Positions 7,648-21,830 of a stretch of 32,000 nucleotides of DNA are shown piece after piece (within the stretch, counting starts at the first letter, position 1; every line of letters starts with the position of its first letter). The DNA comes from an archaeon (GTDB taxonomy: Archaea; Asgardarchaeota; Thorarchaeia; Thorarchaeales; Thorarchaeaceae), in assembly GCA_024275415.1 (NCBI GenBank), contig JAJRZD010000022.1:8375-40374 (forward strand), given 5' to 3'. The notes beneath the pieces were generated by a model that saw nothing but the letters and a program-made list of their open reading frames with translations, was not told the origin of the DNA and did not search any database. A program made the position numbers and the translations under genes.

Positions 7648-7974
7648 ATGCGCACTACAGGGATATGACCAAAATGTGGAGATAGACGGATTGCAGGACC
7701 CCATCGTGTACATGGTGGCGATGGGTGGGTGAAAATTGACCTGCCGGGAATAACTACAGCTACGCTTGACTCATACACCTGCGCGAATTGTGGATATACG
7801 GAGATGTATGCGGACAGGAGAGGACTGGATAACCTGCGTCGCTCAGGCAGGTTCTTACAGAAACAACCGCAACAAGGCCGGCTTCAGCCGCAGACAACAA
7901 AATGCCCAGTCTGCATGACTCCAGTCAGGCCTGGCACAGCGAGATGTCCTGAGTGTGGCTATGACCTGACCTAG
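7648..7974 (+). CDS. Double zinc-ribbon protein (DUF2082-like N-terminal ribbon) with in-frame TGA at codon 7
   Basis: ATG 7648 reads MRTTGI-TGA-PKCGDRRIAGPHR... in frame with track ORF 7729-7974 (CANCGYTEMY; CPVC...CPEC). The TGA (7666-7668) sits at the first Cys of a CPKC knuckle. Confidence 0.75.
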
Positions 7975-11804: not shown

Positions 11805-13190
11805 ATGAAAAAGTACAACAAAATTCGACTTGGAGCACTGATTGTGATTTCGGTTATCACAATGAGTATGGGTCTTACTGTAGCACCTGTAAGTGCGTAT
11901 GGCACAGGGAGCGGTGGTACAGATGACCCGCATGATTGGATTACTGATCAAGCATTAGTGGTTCTTGGAGCGGATGGGTACACTACGATAAGAGATGAAA
12001 TACAGACATCGACCTATCTAGCAAAGATAAAACAAGGATCTTACGACGCAGATCATGGAAGTGATATCCTAGGAATTCCAGTGACTGCAAGTGAGCATTA
12101 TCACAATCCTGATAGCCATCTTGGCTTGTGGTTAGTGATTAGGTTCAAGAGTGCTGCGACCTACGCGCAAGAGAATTTTGAGAAAGCTGTCAAATACTAC
12201 AAGAATGGGGACAAGGCAAATGCCTATTACTATCTCGGGTTCGCACTTCATGTCCTACAAGACTTGACTGTTCCTCATCATGCAGCCCTGACACCCTTCA
12301 ACCAACATTCTGAGTATGAGGCGCACATCTACAATCACAAGAGTTACGTGACTGGGGTCACTTCGGGAGGTAGGTATACACTTCCTAATGTAGCAGATCA
12401 TTACAACGATGACAGTGCTTGGGGATGGGTCGACTATAACTCGCATCAAAGCATAGGATACTATTCCTATGTCAATGGCGGGAGCGATGACAATTGGGAT
12501 TATGTCGCCAGCATGATGCTTCCGTTGGCGGTTCGAACTAGTGCAGGATTCCTGAGATTCTTCTACGAGGAAGCGAACAGAGGACGACAGGAAGCCTACA
12601 GGAGCAGCTCGCTTTCAGGAAGTGGGGCTGAATACACATTCTATGTTGATGTGCCATACGGAACACACACGGTGGCCATGGCTGGCAACGAACCTGATGC
12701 CGATTTCGACCTGTATGTCAGATGGAATGCACCTCCAACGACAAGCACCTATGATGCGAAAGGATTCTCAAGTTACGCATTGGAAAAAGTGCAGACAACA
12801 GGGAAAGGCAGACTCTACGTGATGGTTCGTTCATGGAGTGGAAGCGGCAATTTCAAAGCTAGTGTGATCTACGGCGCTTCGCGGGCATCGCTAAGTACAG
12901 GCAGCTCGCTTGGTTCCTCTGGCGCCACGGTCACAAATTCCTTGTCAGGGTCGCTAAGAAATGGATTCATGCACGGTTGGGCATTCCTAGCTGGGCCGGA
13001 CACTGCTGACTTTGATCTGTACATCAGGTGGGGTGCAGCACCCACGACAAGCACCTATGACGATAGAGGCTTCACAGCACAATCACAGGAAATCTGCGAC
13101 AGCTGGATTGACTCATCGAAGACTTTCTATTCGATGGTCCGCTCATACCGTGGCAGTGGTTCTTACAGGTTGCTGCTCTTGATATTCTAG
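11805..13190 (+). CDS. Secreted Zn-dependent phospholipase C / S1-P1-like hydrolase with two C-terminal PPC-type beta domains
   Basis: Signal peptide; Zn-ligand motifs PHDW, GSYDAD, SEHYHNP, LHVLQDLTVPHH and HSEYE; duplicated ADFDLY(V/I)RW...PTTSTYD domains. Confidence 0.88.
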   Translation: MKKYNKIRLGALIVISVITMSMGLTVAPVSAYGTGSGGTDDPHDWITDQALVVLGADGYTTIRDEIQTSTYLAKIKQGSYDADHGSDILGIPVTASEHYHNPDSHLGLWLVIRFKSAATYAQENFEKAVKYYKNGDKANAYYYLGFALHVLQDLTVPHHAALTPFNQHSEYEAHIYNHKSYVTGVTSGGRYTLPNVADHYNDDSAWGWVDYNSHQSIGYYSYVNGGSDDNWDYVASMMLPLAVRTSAGFLRFFYEEANRGRQEAYRSSSLSGSGAEYTFYVDVPYGTHTVAMAGNEPDADFDLYVRWNAPPTTSTYDAKGFSSYALEKVQTTGKGRLYVMVRSWSGSGNFKASVIYGASRASLSTGSSLGSSGATVTNSLSGSLRNGFMHGWAFLAGPDTADFDLYIRWGAAPTTSTYDDRGFTAQSQEICDSWIDSSKTFYSMVRSYRGSGSYRLLLLIF

Positions 13191-13217: not shown

Positions 13218-13249
13218 GGGGACGAGATTGTTCGTCCCCTCCCTTTTTT
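13218..13249 (+). terminator. Intrinsic-type terminator
   Basis: GGGGACGA (13218-13225) pairs perfectly with TCGTCCCC (13232-13239), followed by TTTTTT (13244-13249). Confidence 0.7.
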
Positions 13250-13451: not shown

Positions 13452-16400
13452 ATGGAACAAGATGCTGCGTCTGCAACATATGCACGCCAACCTAAGATAT
13501 ACGAAACTGATGTACTAAAGATGCTGGTGTTTTCGTTTTTGATCAGTATTATGCTCATACCAGTTATGGTAGAGGCTCCCGTCCATAATGTGAAGACAAT
13601 TGTCCCTACAGCCTTGGAGCATAAGGTTGCCACAACAGCCAACCTGCGCATGGTACAGTTGACGGATCTGTCTGAACACTTGGCAACTGGGAATGTGAGT
13701 AGCTACCGAGGGTTCGCATATTCAGATGATATATCAGATGTTTTGAGGTTCGTTGACCCGATAAATCAGGTCACGTTGAACTAGTCGATCGAAACAGGAA
13801 CTTTGTACAGAAGAACCATTATCGGGGAGGACATGGACAAGGATGGTAGCACGGAATTCATGATAATGAACGATAACGGAACTGCTATCAACCTGCTGAT
13901 TGTTGATTTTAACGATGGCCTGACTACCAAATTTAATGTGTCTATCATAAATCCTCTTAGCATAACAACAGGGAACTTTGGGGGTGATGCAAGTCTGGAT
14001 ATTGCAGTATTTGGACAGTATAGTATCGTCATACTTGATGTCCAGTCAGGCAGCCTTCTAGGTAATTACTCGATTGCAGTTGGTGATTGGTATTCTGCAT
14101 ATTCAGTTGGATATTTCTTGGAAACGTCACAAGATTCGATTGCAGTGGGTATCTGGCCGGCAAGCAATATTGCAAGGATGGATATTGTAGCTGGAAATGG
14201 CTCGGTGATGAGAAGTATTACTTTGCACAACCAAGTTTTCGGACTGGCATCTTTTGAGTACGGTGCGGGACTGGACGAAGTAGCAGTATCAATAACCGAT
14301 GGCAATTTGACAGTCATAGCGCCATCGACAATGACTTCGGTCTTCAACTTGACAGGCTTACCCGAGCAAAGTTATGTTTTACCAGGAGTCTTGAACAATG
14401 ACAACCAAGAAGACCTCGTTGTAGTTTCTACCATGAGTAACTACTCGATATTCATTGATGGGTCGAATGGGTCGATAATACGACAGGGAAATAGACTAGC
14501 TAATTTGGCACAGTCACCTATTAGTGGAAACCCACCCTCTCCGGTGGTGAGCAGTGGATACATGGACGCGGATAATCTCACAGACTACACTGTTCTAAGT
14601 TATCCGGGCAATAAACCATCCTTTCTAAGGGGTTCTGATGGAACCATAGGATATGAGGAGAGTAGGATTCCCGACAAGTCGAGTCAAATCCTCGTATTCG
14701 ATATAAATGGGAATTCAAGAGACGACATCATAGTGCTGAACGGCCTGACAGCCTACATTGTCTTAAGCGATACCCAAGGGCCGCAGGTCATCCCCGAGCC
14801 CCTGTCGCCGCTGCACCCCACAATCCAAGACCCTTACATCAAGATAGAGGTCGAGGTGGTAGAACAGCTTGATGTCATCGCAGCGGATCTGTACATCCGT
14901 TATGACGGGGGCAATTGGAGTCGGCCTACCGAGAACCTTCAGGTATCAGGAAACAGATACTTTGCATTCCTCGTGGGAAAACCAGAGGGCTTCTACGAGT
15001 ATTATCTTGTCTTTCAGGATACATACTTTAACATTGGCACTCTGGGCAATGAAACAAACCCAATGAATTTCACAGTTGCAGGACATCTTTCATGGTTCGA
15101 CACAAAATACCAGAGCACAGGACTGAATCATCGCCTCATGAGCATTGGAAACTCTTCTGATGGTAGAGAGGTGATTTATACGCTGGATTCGAACTCTGGA
15201 AATATCATCCTAGAACGATATTCTACCAGAGGAGAGAATCAGACACTGGCAATATTTCCATTTGGCAACTACAGTGATTTCTCAATCTACACAGGATTAA
15301 TGGATGGTGACAACATCCTTGACCCGATACTCTTGCTGTATAGCGCAACGACATACGATGTGAACGTGTCAATCTATCATGGGAACTCCGGCTCATTATG
15401 GTTTACAACTCAATACCCATACAGAAACACATTCCAACCCGAATCTGCACAGGTATTCGATATTGATAATGACGGGATAGACGAGTTCTTCTTCGTTGCT
15501 GAGAACAGTACCTACAACGGGGAGTTCCTCATCAGATTGCGTGCCGACGGGTCATGGTCACGAACCGAAATTTCTGCGGTAGGAGCAGAGTCCTACGGGT
15601 TGAGCATTGCCAAAACGATAAATGACCACTCAGTGGAGGCAGTCGTTTCTGCAAGTACAGGATACGTGGAGATATTCAATGCCACTAGCATGAGTGTAAT
15701 ATCGACTCATAATGTGACTAGATCTGACCACGCGAGTACGATGGCTATAAGCGTCTACGTACTCAATAACAGATCTGAATCGTATTCGAAGTTCTTGGTG
15801 TATCTGCGGTTCACTGACGCTTCTGGGGTTTCAAGTGGTTTTCAGATCTTTGATGCATCAGTACCTAGCATCAATGAAACCGTAATATATGGTAATACGG
15901 ATGGATACTATTACGCGCCAATCCTCATAGATGTGGATGACGATGGGATTGATGAGGTGTTTGGCGTCAATAGAATAACCAATGAGCTAACACTGTTCAG
16001 GCTGACGGCCCCTGCAACAATAGATTGGACAATCCCAGGTAGCACTTCTGATTTCTTAAGCTCACTAGCTGTTGATTTCGATGGTGACGGTCAAGATGAG
16101 ATCGGGGTCTTCACAAGGCAGGACGAGAACCTCACGATCGTATCGCTTGATGGAACCGTCGAACGGACACTGCCGGTCGGACAGGTGTATGGCAGTATGC
16201 AACTGAGCAGCGTTGACTTGGGCTACGGAGAGGAAATAGCAGCATATCCATTGATACAAGACGGCGTCACCAAAATAGCTGTCATCCGCGATATTGTACA
16301 GATCCGACGCCTTAATGTTTCACTGACTTACGCACCATCAGACCTTTTACAAGGGGATACATTGACAGTTGATGTCGATGTGACAAACATCTATGCTGAG

Positions 16401-18974
16401 CCCATTAACGATGCAGAAGTTTACTTGACCATCCACTACCTTTCAGGTGGTAGTATCATCAACCAGACGAAAGGCCTTATTTTTGGAACCTCGAACTATT
16501 CGACTTCGGTTGCTGTGAACTGGCCTATCGGTATTGTCAATCTGAGCGTGTCTGTCAGACATCCGCTCTACGACCAATGGGAAGAATACTACCCCGGTGC
16601 ATTGACAATAAGAAGTGTCCTAGATGTGCTGGTCTATACTAGGGATATCGTGGTGCAGAACAGCACATTCTCTGCGAATATAACCGTGGCAGATAGTCTT
16701 GGATCACGAGTGTCTGATGCAGAGGTATTGGTAACTTTGGGGGGTGTGGACTATACCGCGCCTTATGTGGGCTCTCAATATAGGGTATCAATTTCAAACA
16801 TTGGCCTCTCACCAGGAGAGTATACTGTCAATACGACTGTTAATCACCCATATGCTTTTGGCATCTCGTCTGCTGTTGCCAATTTCGGGTTAGAAACAGA
16901 CAAGCTCGTAGTTTCGCAGGGGATACCTGCACTTGTGGAACAAGATGATGTGTTCGAGGGCTGGGTGAACATAACGGACGCCTTCAATAGCCCACTTGAG
17001 AACGCCCAAGTCACGCTTGTTGGTAGCGAGATGGAATTCGGTCTCATTGAAGTCGAGCCAGGGGCGTATTATCTGGACTCTCTCATGACTTTGAGTGTGG
17101 GCAACCATTCATTCACCATCATTGTTGAGCATGGATTTGTTCAAGGAACGGAATTTGGGCAGGTTCAAATCATAGTCATGGGAAACCTCATTCCGGTTAT
17201 CGCGGAAGTGCCACCTGTAGATGGCGGTGGGGTGTTCTCCGTTTCTGTGTTCATAAGTGATGGATATGGAACGATGCCGAGTGATACATGGGTGCTGATC
17301 GAGATAGACGGAAGGAACGTCACGGCGATTCACGAATCGGGAACAAAATTCACTGCTGAATTGAATGCTACTTATCCTGCCGGAATGTGGAACTTCACAG
17401 TGTACTATGGCTCAGTATTCAGCCGTGCTAGGAAGATGACCAACAGCATATTTGTCTACTCGAACCCGGTGGTCGAAACCCTATATTCAGATGGCGAATG
17501 GGAGGTAATGCAGGGGAACGACACGATAATAGAGGTCCAGGTGCGAGACTGGCAGGGCACATTGATGAAGAATGCATCAGTGACTCTCTTCATTCGGGGA
17601 ATCACCTATACACTAGGGTATGTCACTGAAGGGGTGTATCAGGCAGAAGTGTCCACGGTTGGATGGCCTTACGGCATTCACACATACTACTTGACTGTTG
17701 GTGGCGAATACCTGTATCAGAATCAATACAGTGGAAACCTGACGGTCATTGCCCGTCCTACTATCATTATCAGGCCTTCAACTACAACACCTGAACAGCT
17801 CTCCACACTCTCCATCACCGTAGATGTCAAAGACCTCTATGACAATCCGATAACGGGTCTTCATCTTGAAGTCACATTTCAGGATGTGACAAAGATTGCA
17901 GAAGAAACATCAGTGAAGGGCACCTATGAAGTTGAATTCACGGTGGAAGGTGTCGGACATGGCTCAAGGGAGATTGTGGTCGGTCTTGAGGGCAGTCTAA
18001 CATATCCAAAGAACACATCGATGACGGTCACTGTAATGGTTGCTGTACCGCGATTGGATTTGAGTCCGATGCAAATCTATACAGCTGCTGGATTATCATT
18101 TTTGATAAGCCTCATCGGAGTACTACTGTTCATCAAGATATCGTCTACCATCCTATCATCTCCAAGAAAGGTCGAGGATGTTACTCGAAGTGTCACATAC
18201 CTCGATAGGACATATCTTGTCATCGTCGCTGCTTCAGGAGCATTGGTCGTCCATTCATGGCTGCTCTATCTGAATGGCTCTTATGTATATGCACTCCTTG
18301 AGAGTGTCATATTACTTGGAGCATCGGTACTGCTCTACGGACTATGGCTTTATCGAGATGCCTACGCTTCGATACTTGTTTCTGGTGATATCAACAGGAA
18401 ACGTACTGCTCTAGGGATGTGGCATCTTGTTCTTGTCCCGTTCATCGTCCTTTTGATATTCGAATACGGGCGATATATCGAGATATTCGCATGGAATATA
18501 TTGGAGAACGTGACCCCATTCGTCATCGGCAACGTGGTGATCGTCCCGATGCTGATGACAATACTGACAACATACCTGAGTAGTATCGTAGTCGTTGTTG
18601 TCAGCTTCTATTGGGAGATACAAAAGGGACTTCGCCGAATCGAAGATATGAAAAATTCAGGCACTCCAGGGAATGTGATCACGGATGAACAAGTGCTACT
18701 TATAGGAAGAACTGGAGCATCAATACGCATAAAGTTCCTCATGTTCCTGTTGGTTCTAGGTGCGATAACGGTAATGCAACTGGAATTTCTCAGGAGCTAC
18801 TCAATGGTTGCGATTGTCCTGCTCCCAATCCTGTTTCTGGTATTGATACCATTCATCTCAACGAGAATCATCAAAGGATTGCCACATGCATATAGAAGAA
18901 TTCAGCGTACAAGAGAGGGGGGGTTTGACGCGGAAGAAACATATGAACCGGATGAATTAATAATGGATACCTGA
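13452..18974 (+). CDS. Giant (~1840 aa) surface protein: signal/TM, FG-GAP-like propeller repeats, Ig-like stalk, ~7-TM C-terminus; interrupted by one in-frame TAG at 13782-13784
   Basis: Track ORFs 13449-13784 and 13803-18974 are in the same frame, joined by AAC-TAG-TCG ATC GAA ACA GGA ACT TTG. The hydrophobic leader is only in the first ORF. Repeated DxDxDGxxE/D motifs are in the second. Confidence 0.85.
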
Positions 18975-20677: not shown

Positions 20678-20915
20678 ACCATCCTGTGTGCGAGGGCTAA
20701 AAGGAACTCATCTCTCGGTTTTTTGAATGTTCTGATTCTGCCTGGAATACAAGTCCAACAGGATCGGGAGGGGGAAAATCGAATTATCAATATCGTATTG
20801 ATGATGAGCATTGTAGATGAGGTATTTGGCAGGTTCTCGTCATTTGTGCAAAGAGTGTTTATCAAAATTGCAGTGTTATCTCTATTAGAAGGCGAATGTA
20901 CAGGAGTCTATTTTG

Positions 20916-21830
20916 ATGGCAAAAGTTGAACTCTCGTATATTAATCGACAAGGTAGAACTAAGACTCTCTCGGTGAACCATACTGCGACCAGAATTGAGT
21001 TCACCAATAAGGGTATCGCGTCGATTGACCTTTCGCCGATCAGAGAATGTATAAGACTGAGAGATTTTCTAATATATGGCAATGAGCTTGTTGAACTCGA
21101 CCTCACGCCGCTTCAGGGATGCCCTCTACTTAGGACACTGGTTCTTCGTGATAACAGGCTGCGAGAGATTGATCTCAGCCCTATTAGAGAGAGCATGGAA
21201 CTATCAAGATTGGATCTCCGGGAGAACCAACTCCAATCACTGGACTTGGAACCACTTGCGAATCATCAAGGTCTGGACAAGTTCCAACTGGAGAAGAACC
21301 CACTACTGGAACTGGATATTAGCCCTTTGCTAACATGTAGAGGATTAAAGGAAGTCACTCTAGATAGACACCTAAAACTCAAGGCTTCCCGAAGTCTTGC
21401 TGGCGCGGTACGCGGACCAATGACCAAGTACAGAAACAGAATCGTGTGGTATGAAAGACAATTCACCCCAACGTCAACGCAAAAGCCGATACAAGCAGTA
21501 TCATCGAATCATGCAAGCAACATGGCACTCGGAGTTTTGAAATCTGTCCCAAGAATCACTATGCAAGAATTGACCAGGTATACGGACATGTCAGTCGAAG
21601 ACACACGAGACCTCGTATTCCTTCTTGTAGGCGAAGGAAAGGTTTCCGGACGATATGAGCCTTCCACTGACGAGTTCATCTCACTTGATGCGGTTCAGAC
21701 TGTGAAAGAGCTCAGGTCTGACGAGATAGTGGTTCAAAGATGCCAATACTGTGGAAGCCCACTTCCCAGACGTTTGATTCCTGGCGATAGGATCGCCTGC
21801 GAAGCTTGCGGTCAAACGAACGAAGCGTAG
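20916..21830 (+). CDS. Leucine-rich-repeat protein with C-terminal winged-helix (PCI-like) segment and zinc ribbon
   Basis: About five (I/L)DL(S/T/E)PL...LxLxxN repeats; ITMQELTRYTDMSVEDTRDLVFLLVGEGKVSGRY; CQYC...CEAC. Confidence 0.85.
   Translation: MAKVELSYINRQGRTKTLSVNHTATRIEFTNKGIASIDLSPIRECIRLRDFLIYGNELVELDLTPLQGCPLLRTLVLRDNRLREIDLSPIRESMELSRLDLRENQLQSLDLEPLANHQGLDKFQLEKNPLLELDISPLLTCRGLKEVTLDRHLKLKASRSLAGAVRGPMTKYRNRIVWYERQFTPTSTQKPIQAVSSNHASNMALGVLKSVPRITMQELTRYTDMSVEDTRDLVFLLVGEGKVSGRYEPSTDEFISLDAVQTVKELRSDEIVVQRCQYCGSPLPRRLIPGDRIACEACGQTNEA

Follow-up and report, generated by a model that had tools for sequence, protein, structure and literature searches.

Integrin alpha subunits carry one seven-bladed propeller and end in a single helix with a short conserved tail, while adhesion GPCRs (class B2; GAIN/GPS plus 7tm_2) place a giant adhesive ectodomain on a seven-helix domain. 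Models of the origin of eukaryotes presuppose that Asgard cells come into contact with partner microbes. To our knowledge, no Asgard contact receptor is known, and the surface proteins seen by tomography are without an assigned identity. Our literature search found no paper combining Asgard and FG-GAP; Liu et al. 2021 in Nature is reportedly the source that others give for integrin repeats and 7TM proteins in Asgard archaea. Lokiarchaea in culture lack an S-layer; their envelope is a single membrane from which complex surface proteins protrude (PMC9834061). FG-GAP propellers serve adhesion in prokaryotic adhesins of the Bap1 type (PMC11879085). The Dictyostelium adhesion protein SadA has nine helices, an extracellular repeat region, and a tail that binds cortexillin and talin at the actin cortex (PMC9197732).

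Our locus, in a Thorarchaeota genome and thus from the Asgard archaea, close relatives of eukaryotes, encodes a giant surface protein with an adhesion-receptor layout, in which no kinship to GPCRs or integrins was found. The protein runs from a signal peptide through an FG-GAP propeller, a beta-sandwich, a second propeller, six Ig-like repeats and seven helices to an acidic tail. Its features are given below in coordinates of the window, the whole stretch of 32,000 nucleotides analysed.

13218..13249, + strand: hairpin and T-run, a terminator-like site that closes the upstream phospholipase gene and sets it apart from the surface-protein gene.
13452..18974, + strand: whole gene, 1840 codons; aligns end to end with intact orthologs of 1844-1904 aa at 52-57% identity.
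13512..13577, + strand: N-terminal hydrophobic helix (aa 21-42), signal peptide or signal anchor; hydropathy 2.4, with a similar segment opening the orthologs.
13644..14771, + strand: propeller 1, eight blades with FG-GAP/DxDxDG calcium-type loops; 32 modelled strands at pLDDT about 90, best matches eight-bladed (Z 25-28).
13782-13784, + strand: in-frame TAG at codon 111, inside blade 1 of propeller 1; breaks the frame, probably an assembly error.
14778..15080, + strand: single beta-sandwich between the propellers, from the secondary structure of the model; 45% mean identity across homologs.
15084..16301, + strand: propeller 2, eight blades with FG-GAP loops; 32 strands, BamB at Z 27.5, FG-GAP_3 at E=8e-12.
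16308..18047, + strand: stalk built of six Ig-like repeats, each about 96 aa long, from repeat alignment; mutual similarity to E=1e-7.
18069..18866, + strand: seven-helix domain of no known family, N-out/C-in, from hydropathy, model and homolog alignment; no family or fold match.
18867..18974, + strand: after TM7, a basic amphipathic helix leading into a short acidic cytoplasmic tail that ends at a TGA stop, from model and sequence; a double zinc ribbon lies here in one clade.

A genome-wide family search returned this gene as the only copy in its genome. It is probably monocistronic; no conserved co-oriented neighbour or operon partner was found, and the neighbours vary between paralog groups. 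Cysteine is absent from the entire protein, and this member carries no fused catalytic domain or known output domain. The first-pass annotation, made from the DNA letters, had pointed to many sequons. The count bears this out: there are 42, where shuffled sequences average 16 (max 28), and all lie on the predicted outer side.

The internal TAG, which the first-pass annotation did not mention, is probably assembly noise, because 11 isolated internal stops occur in 355 orthologs of this genome (about one per 30 genes) and PylS was found neither in this genome nor among 86 genomes of the family. In a control genome the credible count is 0-1, as three of the four remaining matches look like antisense shadow frames. 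The six nearest orthologs have Gln (CAA/CAG) at codon 111. An assembly artefact is our favoured explanation with good confidence, while a recent null allele is rather doubtful and recoding is hardly credible. General decay of this copy was not seen, the 4.3% of conserved columns that deviate being within the range of intact members. Pyrrolysine read-through was rejected because PylS is lacking, PylB gave no match over the cut-off, no stable hairpin follows the TAG (z=+0.9) and TAG serves as an ordinary stop in this genome, where it terminates 82 of 225 conserved C-termini and so is not avoided. A same-genus paralog (G003) has a second in-frame TAG, at a different and non-conserved site. Any claim of recoding drawn from this assembly has to reckon with this rate of spurious stops, about one per 30 genes.

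In the model, both propellers are eight-bladed and resemble BamB and Bap1, rather than having the seven blades of integrin alpha. Structure matches to BamB, WD40 and Bap1 (Z 24-28) are closer than those to integrin alpha (Z 18); eight-bladed matches reach Z 25-28, integrin 18.6. FG-GAP motifs in two blocks, separated by a single beta-sandwich, had been read from the sequence, and a propeller was expected in the predicted structure. The model contains the sandwich and two propellers, and the protein matches Pfam FG-GAP_3 at E=1.3e-13. The motifs themselves are partly loose: strict DxDxDG-type loops number 6 (shuffle mean 0.07, max 2), and among the 16 blade positions that can be made out, many are degenerate. 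A pair of propellers over a membrane part also recalls EMC1, which would make the protein a factor in membrane-protein biogenesis or quality control. Propeller searches do return EMC1 (Foldseek TM 0.27-0.28; VIA Z 21 at rmsd 35 Å; Pfam EMC1_N E=0.02), but the match spans generic propellers only, the heads are swapped between clades of a patchily distributed family, and a stalk of 3-18 Ig units keeps the propellers off the membrane. Such a role is highly improbable.

The six Ig-like repeats, also foreseen in the first-pass annotation, give weak Big_1/Invasin_D3 matches under the cut-offs (Big_1 E=8e-6). A census of stalk length across homologs found roughly 3-18 units. The final repeat meets TM1 within about 8 residues, via a near-invariant Pro.

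Beyond this junction, the predicted run of seven hydrophobic helices and a short acidic tail was confirmed: the seven segments are helical in the model (pLDDT 83), 88-100% of 107 homologs keep them hydrophobic, and the final 20 residues include 8 D/E. Lys and Arg are skewed towards loops 1, 3 and 5 and the tail (mean 23.6, vs 2.0 on the opposite side, in 107/107 sequences), and the topology is therefore N-out/C-in. In the model, TM3, TM5 and TM6 extend into the cytoplasm as long helices, and conserved residues gather at their cytoplasmic ends. Outer loop 2 forms a hairpin, inner loop 3 is long, and an amphipathic helix 8 is present. Mean identity is 53% in the membrane domain, where 23% of columns are near-invariant; the ectodomain parts reach 34-45% and 6-11%, a contrast that is partly compositional because hydrophobic domains show inflated identity. 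Conservation reaches about 0.7 in TM3 and TM5-7, and includes specific polar and aromatic residues.

The fold comparison of the C-terminal region that had been suggested with the first-pass annotation yielded no specific Foldseek or VIA match, nor any known non-signalling membrane family. The membrane domain matched no Pfam or NCBIfam family (the Pfam check covered 107 members) and no transporter family, and PDB sequence searches gave nothing specific. Foldseek against the PDB found nothing at E<0.1, a wide VIA search brought up only helical bundles of a generic kind (best Z 10.4; the best 50 listed include no GPCR) and an atlas structure search reached a TM of at most 0.34 by query; these blanks are no proof of a new fold, and the fold comparisons use a model with pTM 0.74.

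Direct comparison with GPCRs, with the same model of pTM 0.74, gave Foldseek TM 0.26-0.29 at E above 0.1, and VIA Z 6.4-6.8 at rmsd 14-17 Å over about 240 residues. The first-pass annotation had claimed no GPCR homology, in agreement with these values and with the lack of a 7tm Pfam match in 32 or 107 members. A GPCR relative that has diverged strongly, an archaeal proto-adhesion-GPCR whose helix packing is mis-modelled, would share the topology (N-out, seven helices, outer loop 2 hairpin, long inner loop 3, helix 8). GPCRs also fill many of the top, non-significant Foldseek matches, and structure clusters annotated as GPCRs are reported to include Asgard members (10.64898/2026.10.28.762692). 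We nevertheless regard such kinship as very unlikely in view of the poor superposition, the absence of the GPS cleavage motif (0/131 members), the lack of any Cys column above 10% for a TM3-ECL2 disulfide, and the failure to find the class A motifs DRY, CWxP and NPxxY. A search for G-alpha (PF00503) had no match in this genome (93% complete), though no control genome passed the cut-off either.

A search for the membrane domain on other ectodomains, as had been proposed, found it in Thorarchaeota, Loki, Hel, Njord, Baldr and Heimdall lineages, under FG-GAP, BNR/Asp-box or CarboxypepD/SpaA-type heads. These are the same domain by profile-profile comparison (probability 99.9%, E=4e-37), which in long members is always C-terminal to a large ectodomain. 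The tails vary as well: a cytoplasmic double zinc ribbon follows the helices in 40 of the 131 long members, in a Loki-dominated clade, and a conserved helical tail does so in one Thorarchaeota paralog group. An apparent HTH fusion (G030) was rejected as a scaffold-gap artefact. Within the Loki class the family occurs in only 20 of 161 genomes, and the domain was not found in two complete genomes searched (4.4 Mb and 6.0 Mb); it is therefore, given this patchiness, not core Asgard machinery.

Five other giant FG-GAP proteins of this genome end in a single helix, hence one helix is enough for anchoring. We infer that the membrane module does more than anchor the protein, because no other region is as conserved, and because it recurs below ectodomains of different types and bears a zinc-ribbon tail in one clade, while single helices anchor other giants. 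Alternatively, the module might be a structural strut that bears load and fastens the glycoprotein coat to the membrane or cortex (e.g. actin) without regulated signalling, its extra helices giving pull-out strength or a fixed cytoskeletal dock. The absence of an enzyme or output domain and the solitary gene would suit such a strut, as would Asgard envelopes with many surface proteins and no S-layer (PMC9834061) and the binding of cortexillin and talin by the SadA tail (PMC9197732). Yet a strut seems somewhat unlikely given the one-helix anchors of the other giants, the conserved polar and aromatic residues, and the swapping of tails between clades.

Capture and uptake, or a gated channel, is a less likely function, in which a nutrient polymer or ion bound by the propellers would be conducted or gated by the membrane domain, possibly in oligomeric form. 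The TM3-TM6 span does align with membrane bundles of four helices, Cys-loop channel subunits among them (Z 8-9, generic), and the other clade has BNR/Asp-box heads, which are typical of glycan-acting proteins. However, the sole conserved charged residue in mid-membrane is a His in TM4, present in 48% of members, no transporter family matched, no conserved transport neighbour was found beside the gene, and a long stalk would keep cargo far off the membrane.

Our preferred reading, held at about even confidence, is an Asgard-specific contact-sensing adhesion receptor that signals via its conserved cytoplasmic helical face. The exported head, modelled as two eight-bladed propellers with calcium-type loops, sits on an Ig stalk of variable length; in this receptor it would bind to another cell or to a matrix polymer, at a distance of tens of nanometres from the membrane. 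Load or binding on the stalk might then shift the TM3-TM6 bundle and alter a cytoplasmic docking face, which could recruit a small GTPase, a cytoskeletal adaptor, a zinc-ribbon protein or a similar partner. The Loki-dominated clade may have its interaction module, the double zinc ribbon, fused directly. The likeness of the propeller to the biofilm adhesin Bap1 and the Lokiarchaeal envelope with its protruding proteins (PMC9834061) speak for this reading; the missing output domain, the lack of conserved neighbours and the patchy distribution speak against it. The first-pass annotation had proposed an adhesion or contact-sensing receptor with a signalling or transport module; a module beyond a mere anchor, conserved, reused and gaining tails, is what our results support, while the signalling itself we infer. 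More tentatively still, and short of even confidence, the seven-helix domain might be the transducer of an undescribed Asgard-wide class of adhesion receptors that reached the adhesion-GPCR layout independently. Heads and tails of this class would be interchangeable, and it would couple contact between cells to the archaeal cortex of actin or small GTPases. The family offers a named candidate for an Asgard contact receptor, with a conserved, uncharacterised seven-helix module and swappable heads and tails. Solving this 300-residue module would bear on signalling and on whether the adhesion-GPCR layout arose twice.

Compared to known membrane sensors, the protein shares a multi-helix membrane module with MASE and 7TM-DISM sensors, but has no Pfam match to them in 107 members and no fused kinase, cyclase or HAMP domain. 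A weak language-model likeness to MASE10 (0.88, 157 shared features) is under the tool's reliable range and was not reproduced with a Loki member. A microbial rhodopsin was rejected, since TM7 has no Lys where the retinal-binding Lys is expected (mid TM7) and rhodopsins superpose at rmsd 14-17 Å. So was a 7TM ion channel of the insect odorant-receptor superfamily, in which the N-terminus is intracellular and the C-terminus extracellular (10.1101/2023.08.30.555482), the reverse of the orientation in 107/107 members.

Among adhesion proteins, the integrin-alpha layout suggested earlier holds for a calcium-loop FG-GAP propeller followed by beta-sandwich legs (propeller and first sandwich align to alphaV at Z 18.4, rmsd 8.9 Å). 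It fails in that there are two eight-bladed propellers, nearer to BamB, WD40 and Bap1, and seven helices instead of a single-pass tail. A search for integrin beta (PF00362) had no match in this genome, nor in the controls. Vibrio cholerae Bap1 (Z 24.5, 14% identity to the propeller), prokaryotic FG-GAP adhesins and single-anchor archaeal giants share the adhesive propeller and Ig-like stalks, but are secreted or single-pass, whereas this protein has a conserved seven-helix base with a cytoplasmic face. Dictyostelium SadA and TM9/Phg1, with nine helices and EGF repeats and no sequence match found to the present protein, are functional analogues only, as multi-pass adhesion proteins. The adhesion-GPCR layout, also suggested earlier, stands as a layout without GAIN/GPS, cysteine or class motifs, and with a bundle that superposes poorly (TM-score at most 0.29). 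What the two share is a giant adhesive glycosylated ectodomain (glycosylation here being predicted from sequons) on seven N-out/C-in helices, with a long inner loop 3 and a helix 8.

Translation from position 13452 gives a frame of 1840 codons that ends in TGA at 18972 and contains a single internal TAG, at which an ORF finder cuts it into 111 and 1723 aa. The gene and its product contain:

13452-18974 (+): gene studied
13782-13784 (+): in-frame TAG, codon 111, inside propeller 1
aa 21-42: N-terminal hydrophobic helix, from hydropathy
aa 953-1532: six Ig-like repeats, the stalk
aa 1540-1805: seven hydrophobic helices

Apart from the broken frame, all the elements named in the first-pass annotation were present, including six strict DxDxDG-type FG-GAP loops (0.07 in shuffles) and 42 sequons (16 in shuffles). 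The protein may bind calcium and may be glycosylated.

At the position of the amber codon, the six nearest orthologs encode Gln. In the source genome TAG serves as a regular stop codon, terminating 490 of 1417 long ORFs as well as 82 of 225 conserved C-termini. A search for PylS came up empty in all 86 family genomes, with a positive Methanosarcina control. Comparison with 355 orthologs from a same-genus genome revealed 11 isolated internal stops in the source genome (8 TAA, 3 TAG). Most of these replace a Glu or Ser codon, and some of the affected genes have flanks that are 96% identical. The reciprocal control gave at most one credible case. At this rate, ~0.15 stops are expected in a gene of this length. 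Genome-wide, ~3% of the genes carry an isolated in-frame stop, chiefly through G>T or C>A. The isolated stops suggest a noisy consensus, which weakens any recoding or pseudogene claim based on this assembly. No decay was seen elsewhere in the gene, and the amber codon most likely reflects an assembly error. Alternatively, it may be a recent null allele; because the downstream fragment has no signal peptide, the gene would be inactive if the stop were real. A same-genus paralog also has one in-frame TAG, at a different site (L061:5405-5407, genome G003). Elsewhere in the window, a small zinc-ribbon gene at 7648-7974 (+) has TGA at an expected CxxC cysteine. This TGC>TGA change is C>A, the same type as the noise of the source genome, although that genome does have a tRNA-Sec.

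The closest named relatives are Thorarchaeota, and six orthologs, all with open frames, align end to end at 52–57% identity. The membrane domain is the best-conserved part of the protein (53% identity, compared to 34–45% for parts of the ectodomain). A single query detected it in 20 of 36 same-family genomes, commonly as two paralogs, and among 1.84 billion representatives a profile search retrieved 149 matches. Named members come from Thor-, Hermod-, Baldr-, Njord-, Loki/Promethe-, Hel-, Hod- and Heimdallarchaeota and Asgardarchaeum. Its distribution within the Loki class is uneven, with members in 20 of 161 genomes. Two members carry non-Asgard labels: a Latescibacterota MAG (contig of 4.4 kb) and an entry titled Nitrososphaerota; the genome of the latter (G056) was placed in the window's own phylum. 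Both nest with Njord/Baldr members in the tree, which points to misbinning or mislabelling. Judged by its named members, the family is likely confined to Asgard.

Across 107 diverse members all seven segments are hydrophobic, and in each of these proteins the topology by the positive-inside rule is N-out/C-in. Conserved residues concentrate where TM3, TM4, TM5 and TM6 reach the cytoplasm. In the model (pLDDT 83, pTM 0.74) the helices are long, TM3, TM5 and TM6 extend into the cytoplasm, the second outer loop forms a hairpin, and an amphipathic helix follows TM7. The domain matched no Pfam or NCBIfam family and no solved structure by sequence; its best structural matches were generic four-helix bundles over TM3-TM6. 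An uptake or channel module is an unlikely reading of this domain. A diverged GPCR is very improbable. GPCRs did occur among the weak Foldseek rows, but superposed at TM 0.26–0.29 (rmsd 14–17 Å). In a motif and residue check, GPS, cysteines, class A motifs and the retinal Lys were all absent.

The ectodomain model covers aa 65-955, with TAG read as Gln and the stalk outside it (pLDDT 90.5). It is all-beta, with 32 strands on each side of the central sandwich, and as modelled the head consists of two propellers with eight blades each. Its highest-scoring structural matches were 8-bladed propellers (BamB, ODA16, Rsa4, Cdc4 and the designed Ika8; Z 25–28), and the Vibrio biofilm adhesin Bap1 gave Z 24.5 at 14% identity. 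A biogenesis factor seems the most remote of the readings. An integrin-alpha layout had been proposed. Its FG-GAP-type head stands, but the propeller is not that of integrin alpha, since the 8-bladed matches outscore integrin alphaIIb (Z 18.6) and alphaV (Z 18.4). The stalk ranges from ~3 to 18 units among homologs, consistent with expectation for a spacer.

In a quick, midpoint-rooted tree, a Thor/Njord/Baldr clade has mainly FG-GAP heads and short tails, and a Loki-dominated clade mainly BNR/Asp-box heads and a cytoplasmic double zinc ribbon; their membrane domains are homologous across 276 columns. A third group has CarboxypepD/SpaA-type ectodomains. Long-stalk paralogs (L042, L043, L047, L048, L055, L056) end in an acidic linker and a conserved two-helix tail of ~35 aa, for which Pfam gave no match. 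The source genome encodes six other giant, sequon-rich FG-GAP proteins of 1.0–2.7 thousand aa (C63, C110, C83, C29, C30, C1). A non-signalling structural strut is a less probable yet serious alternative; five of these six proteins end in a single C-terminal helix, and hence seven helices are unnecessary for anchoring alone.

The gene appears to stand alone, with a terminator-like site upstream, a convergent carboxyltransferase downstream, and no conserved co-oriented neighbour among the homolog loci. A secreted Zn-dependent phospholipase C-like protein with PPC domains (11805-13190, +) is missing at the syntenic same-genus locus L066 and is probably a recent insertion. A leucine-rich repeat protein at 20913-21830 (+) has a weak C-terminal double zinc ribbon match. 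Immediately downstream of one Thorarchaeota paralog group lies a convergent, conserved secreted/membrane protein of ~570 aa (L116:6920-8623 (-) and 30 other loci), also with a weak double zinc ribbon match and followed by a stand-alone receiver domain; possibly, it is a partner acting in trans. Downstream of the long-stalk group, a convergent vWA-domain protein (L117:1676-2740 (-) and 7 other loci) showed no sign of co-transcription with these paralogs.

The analysis shows the architecture, the topology, the conservation and the swapping of domains. The favoured reading, with about even chances, is that the gene product is a contact-sensing adhesion receptor. Its propeller heads would bind a ligand, the stalk would transmit, and the TM3-TM6 bundle would present a regulated docking face on the cytoplasmic side, possibly for signalling through a partner. 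Published work does mention integrin repeats and 7TM proteins from Asgard archaea (PMC9258230; 10.64898/2026.10.28.762692). Our literature search found no paper describing this protein family, which may overlap with those published families. By the membership tests of adhesion GPCRs and of integrin alpha, the gene product belongs to neither, and its likeness to adhesion receptors is one of layout.
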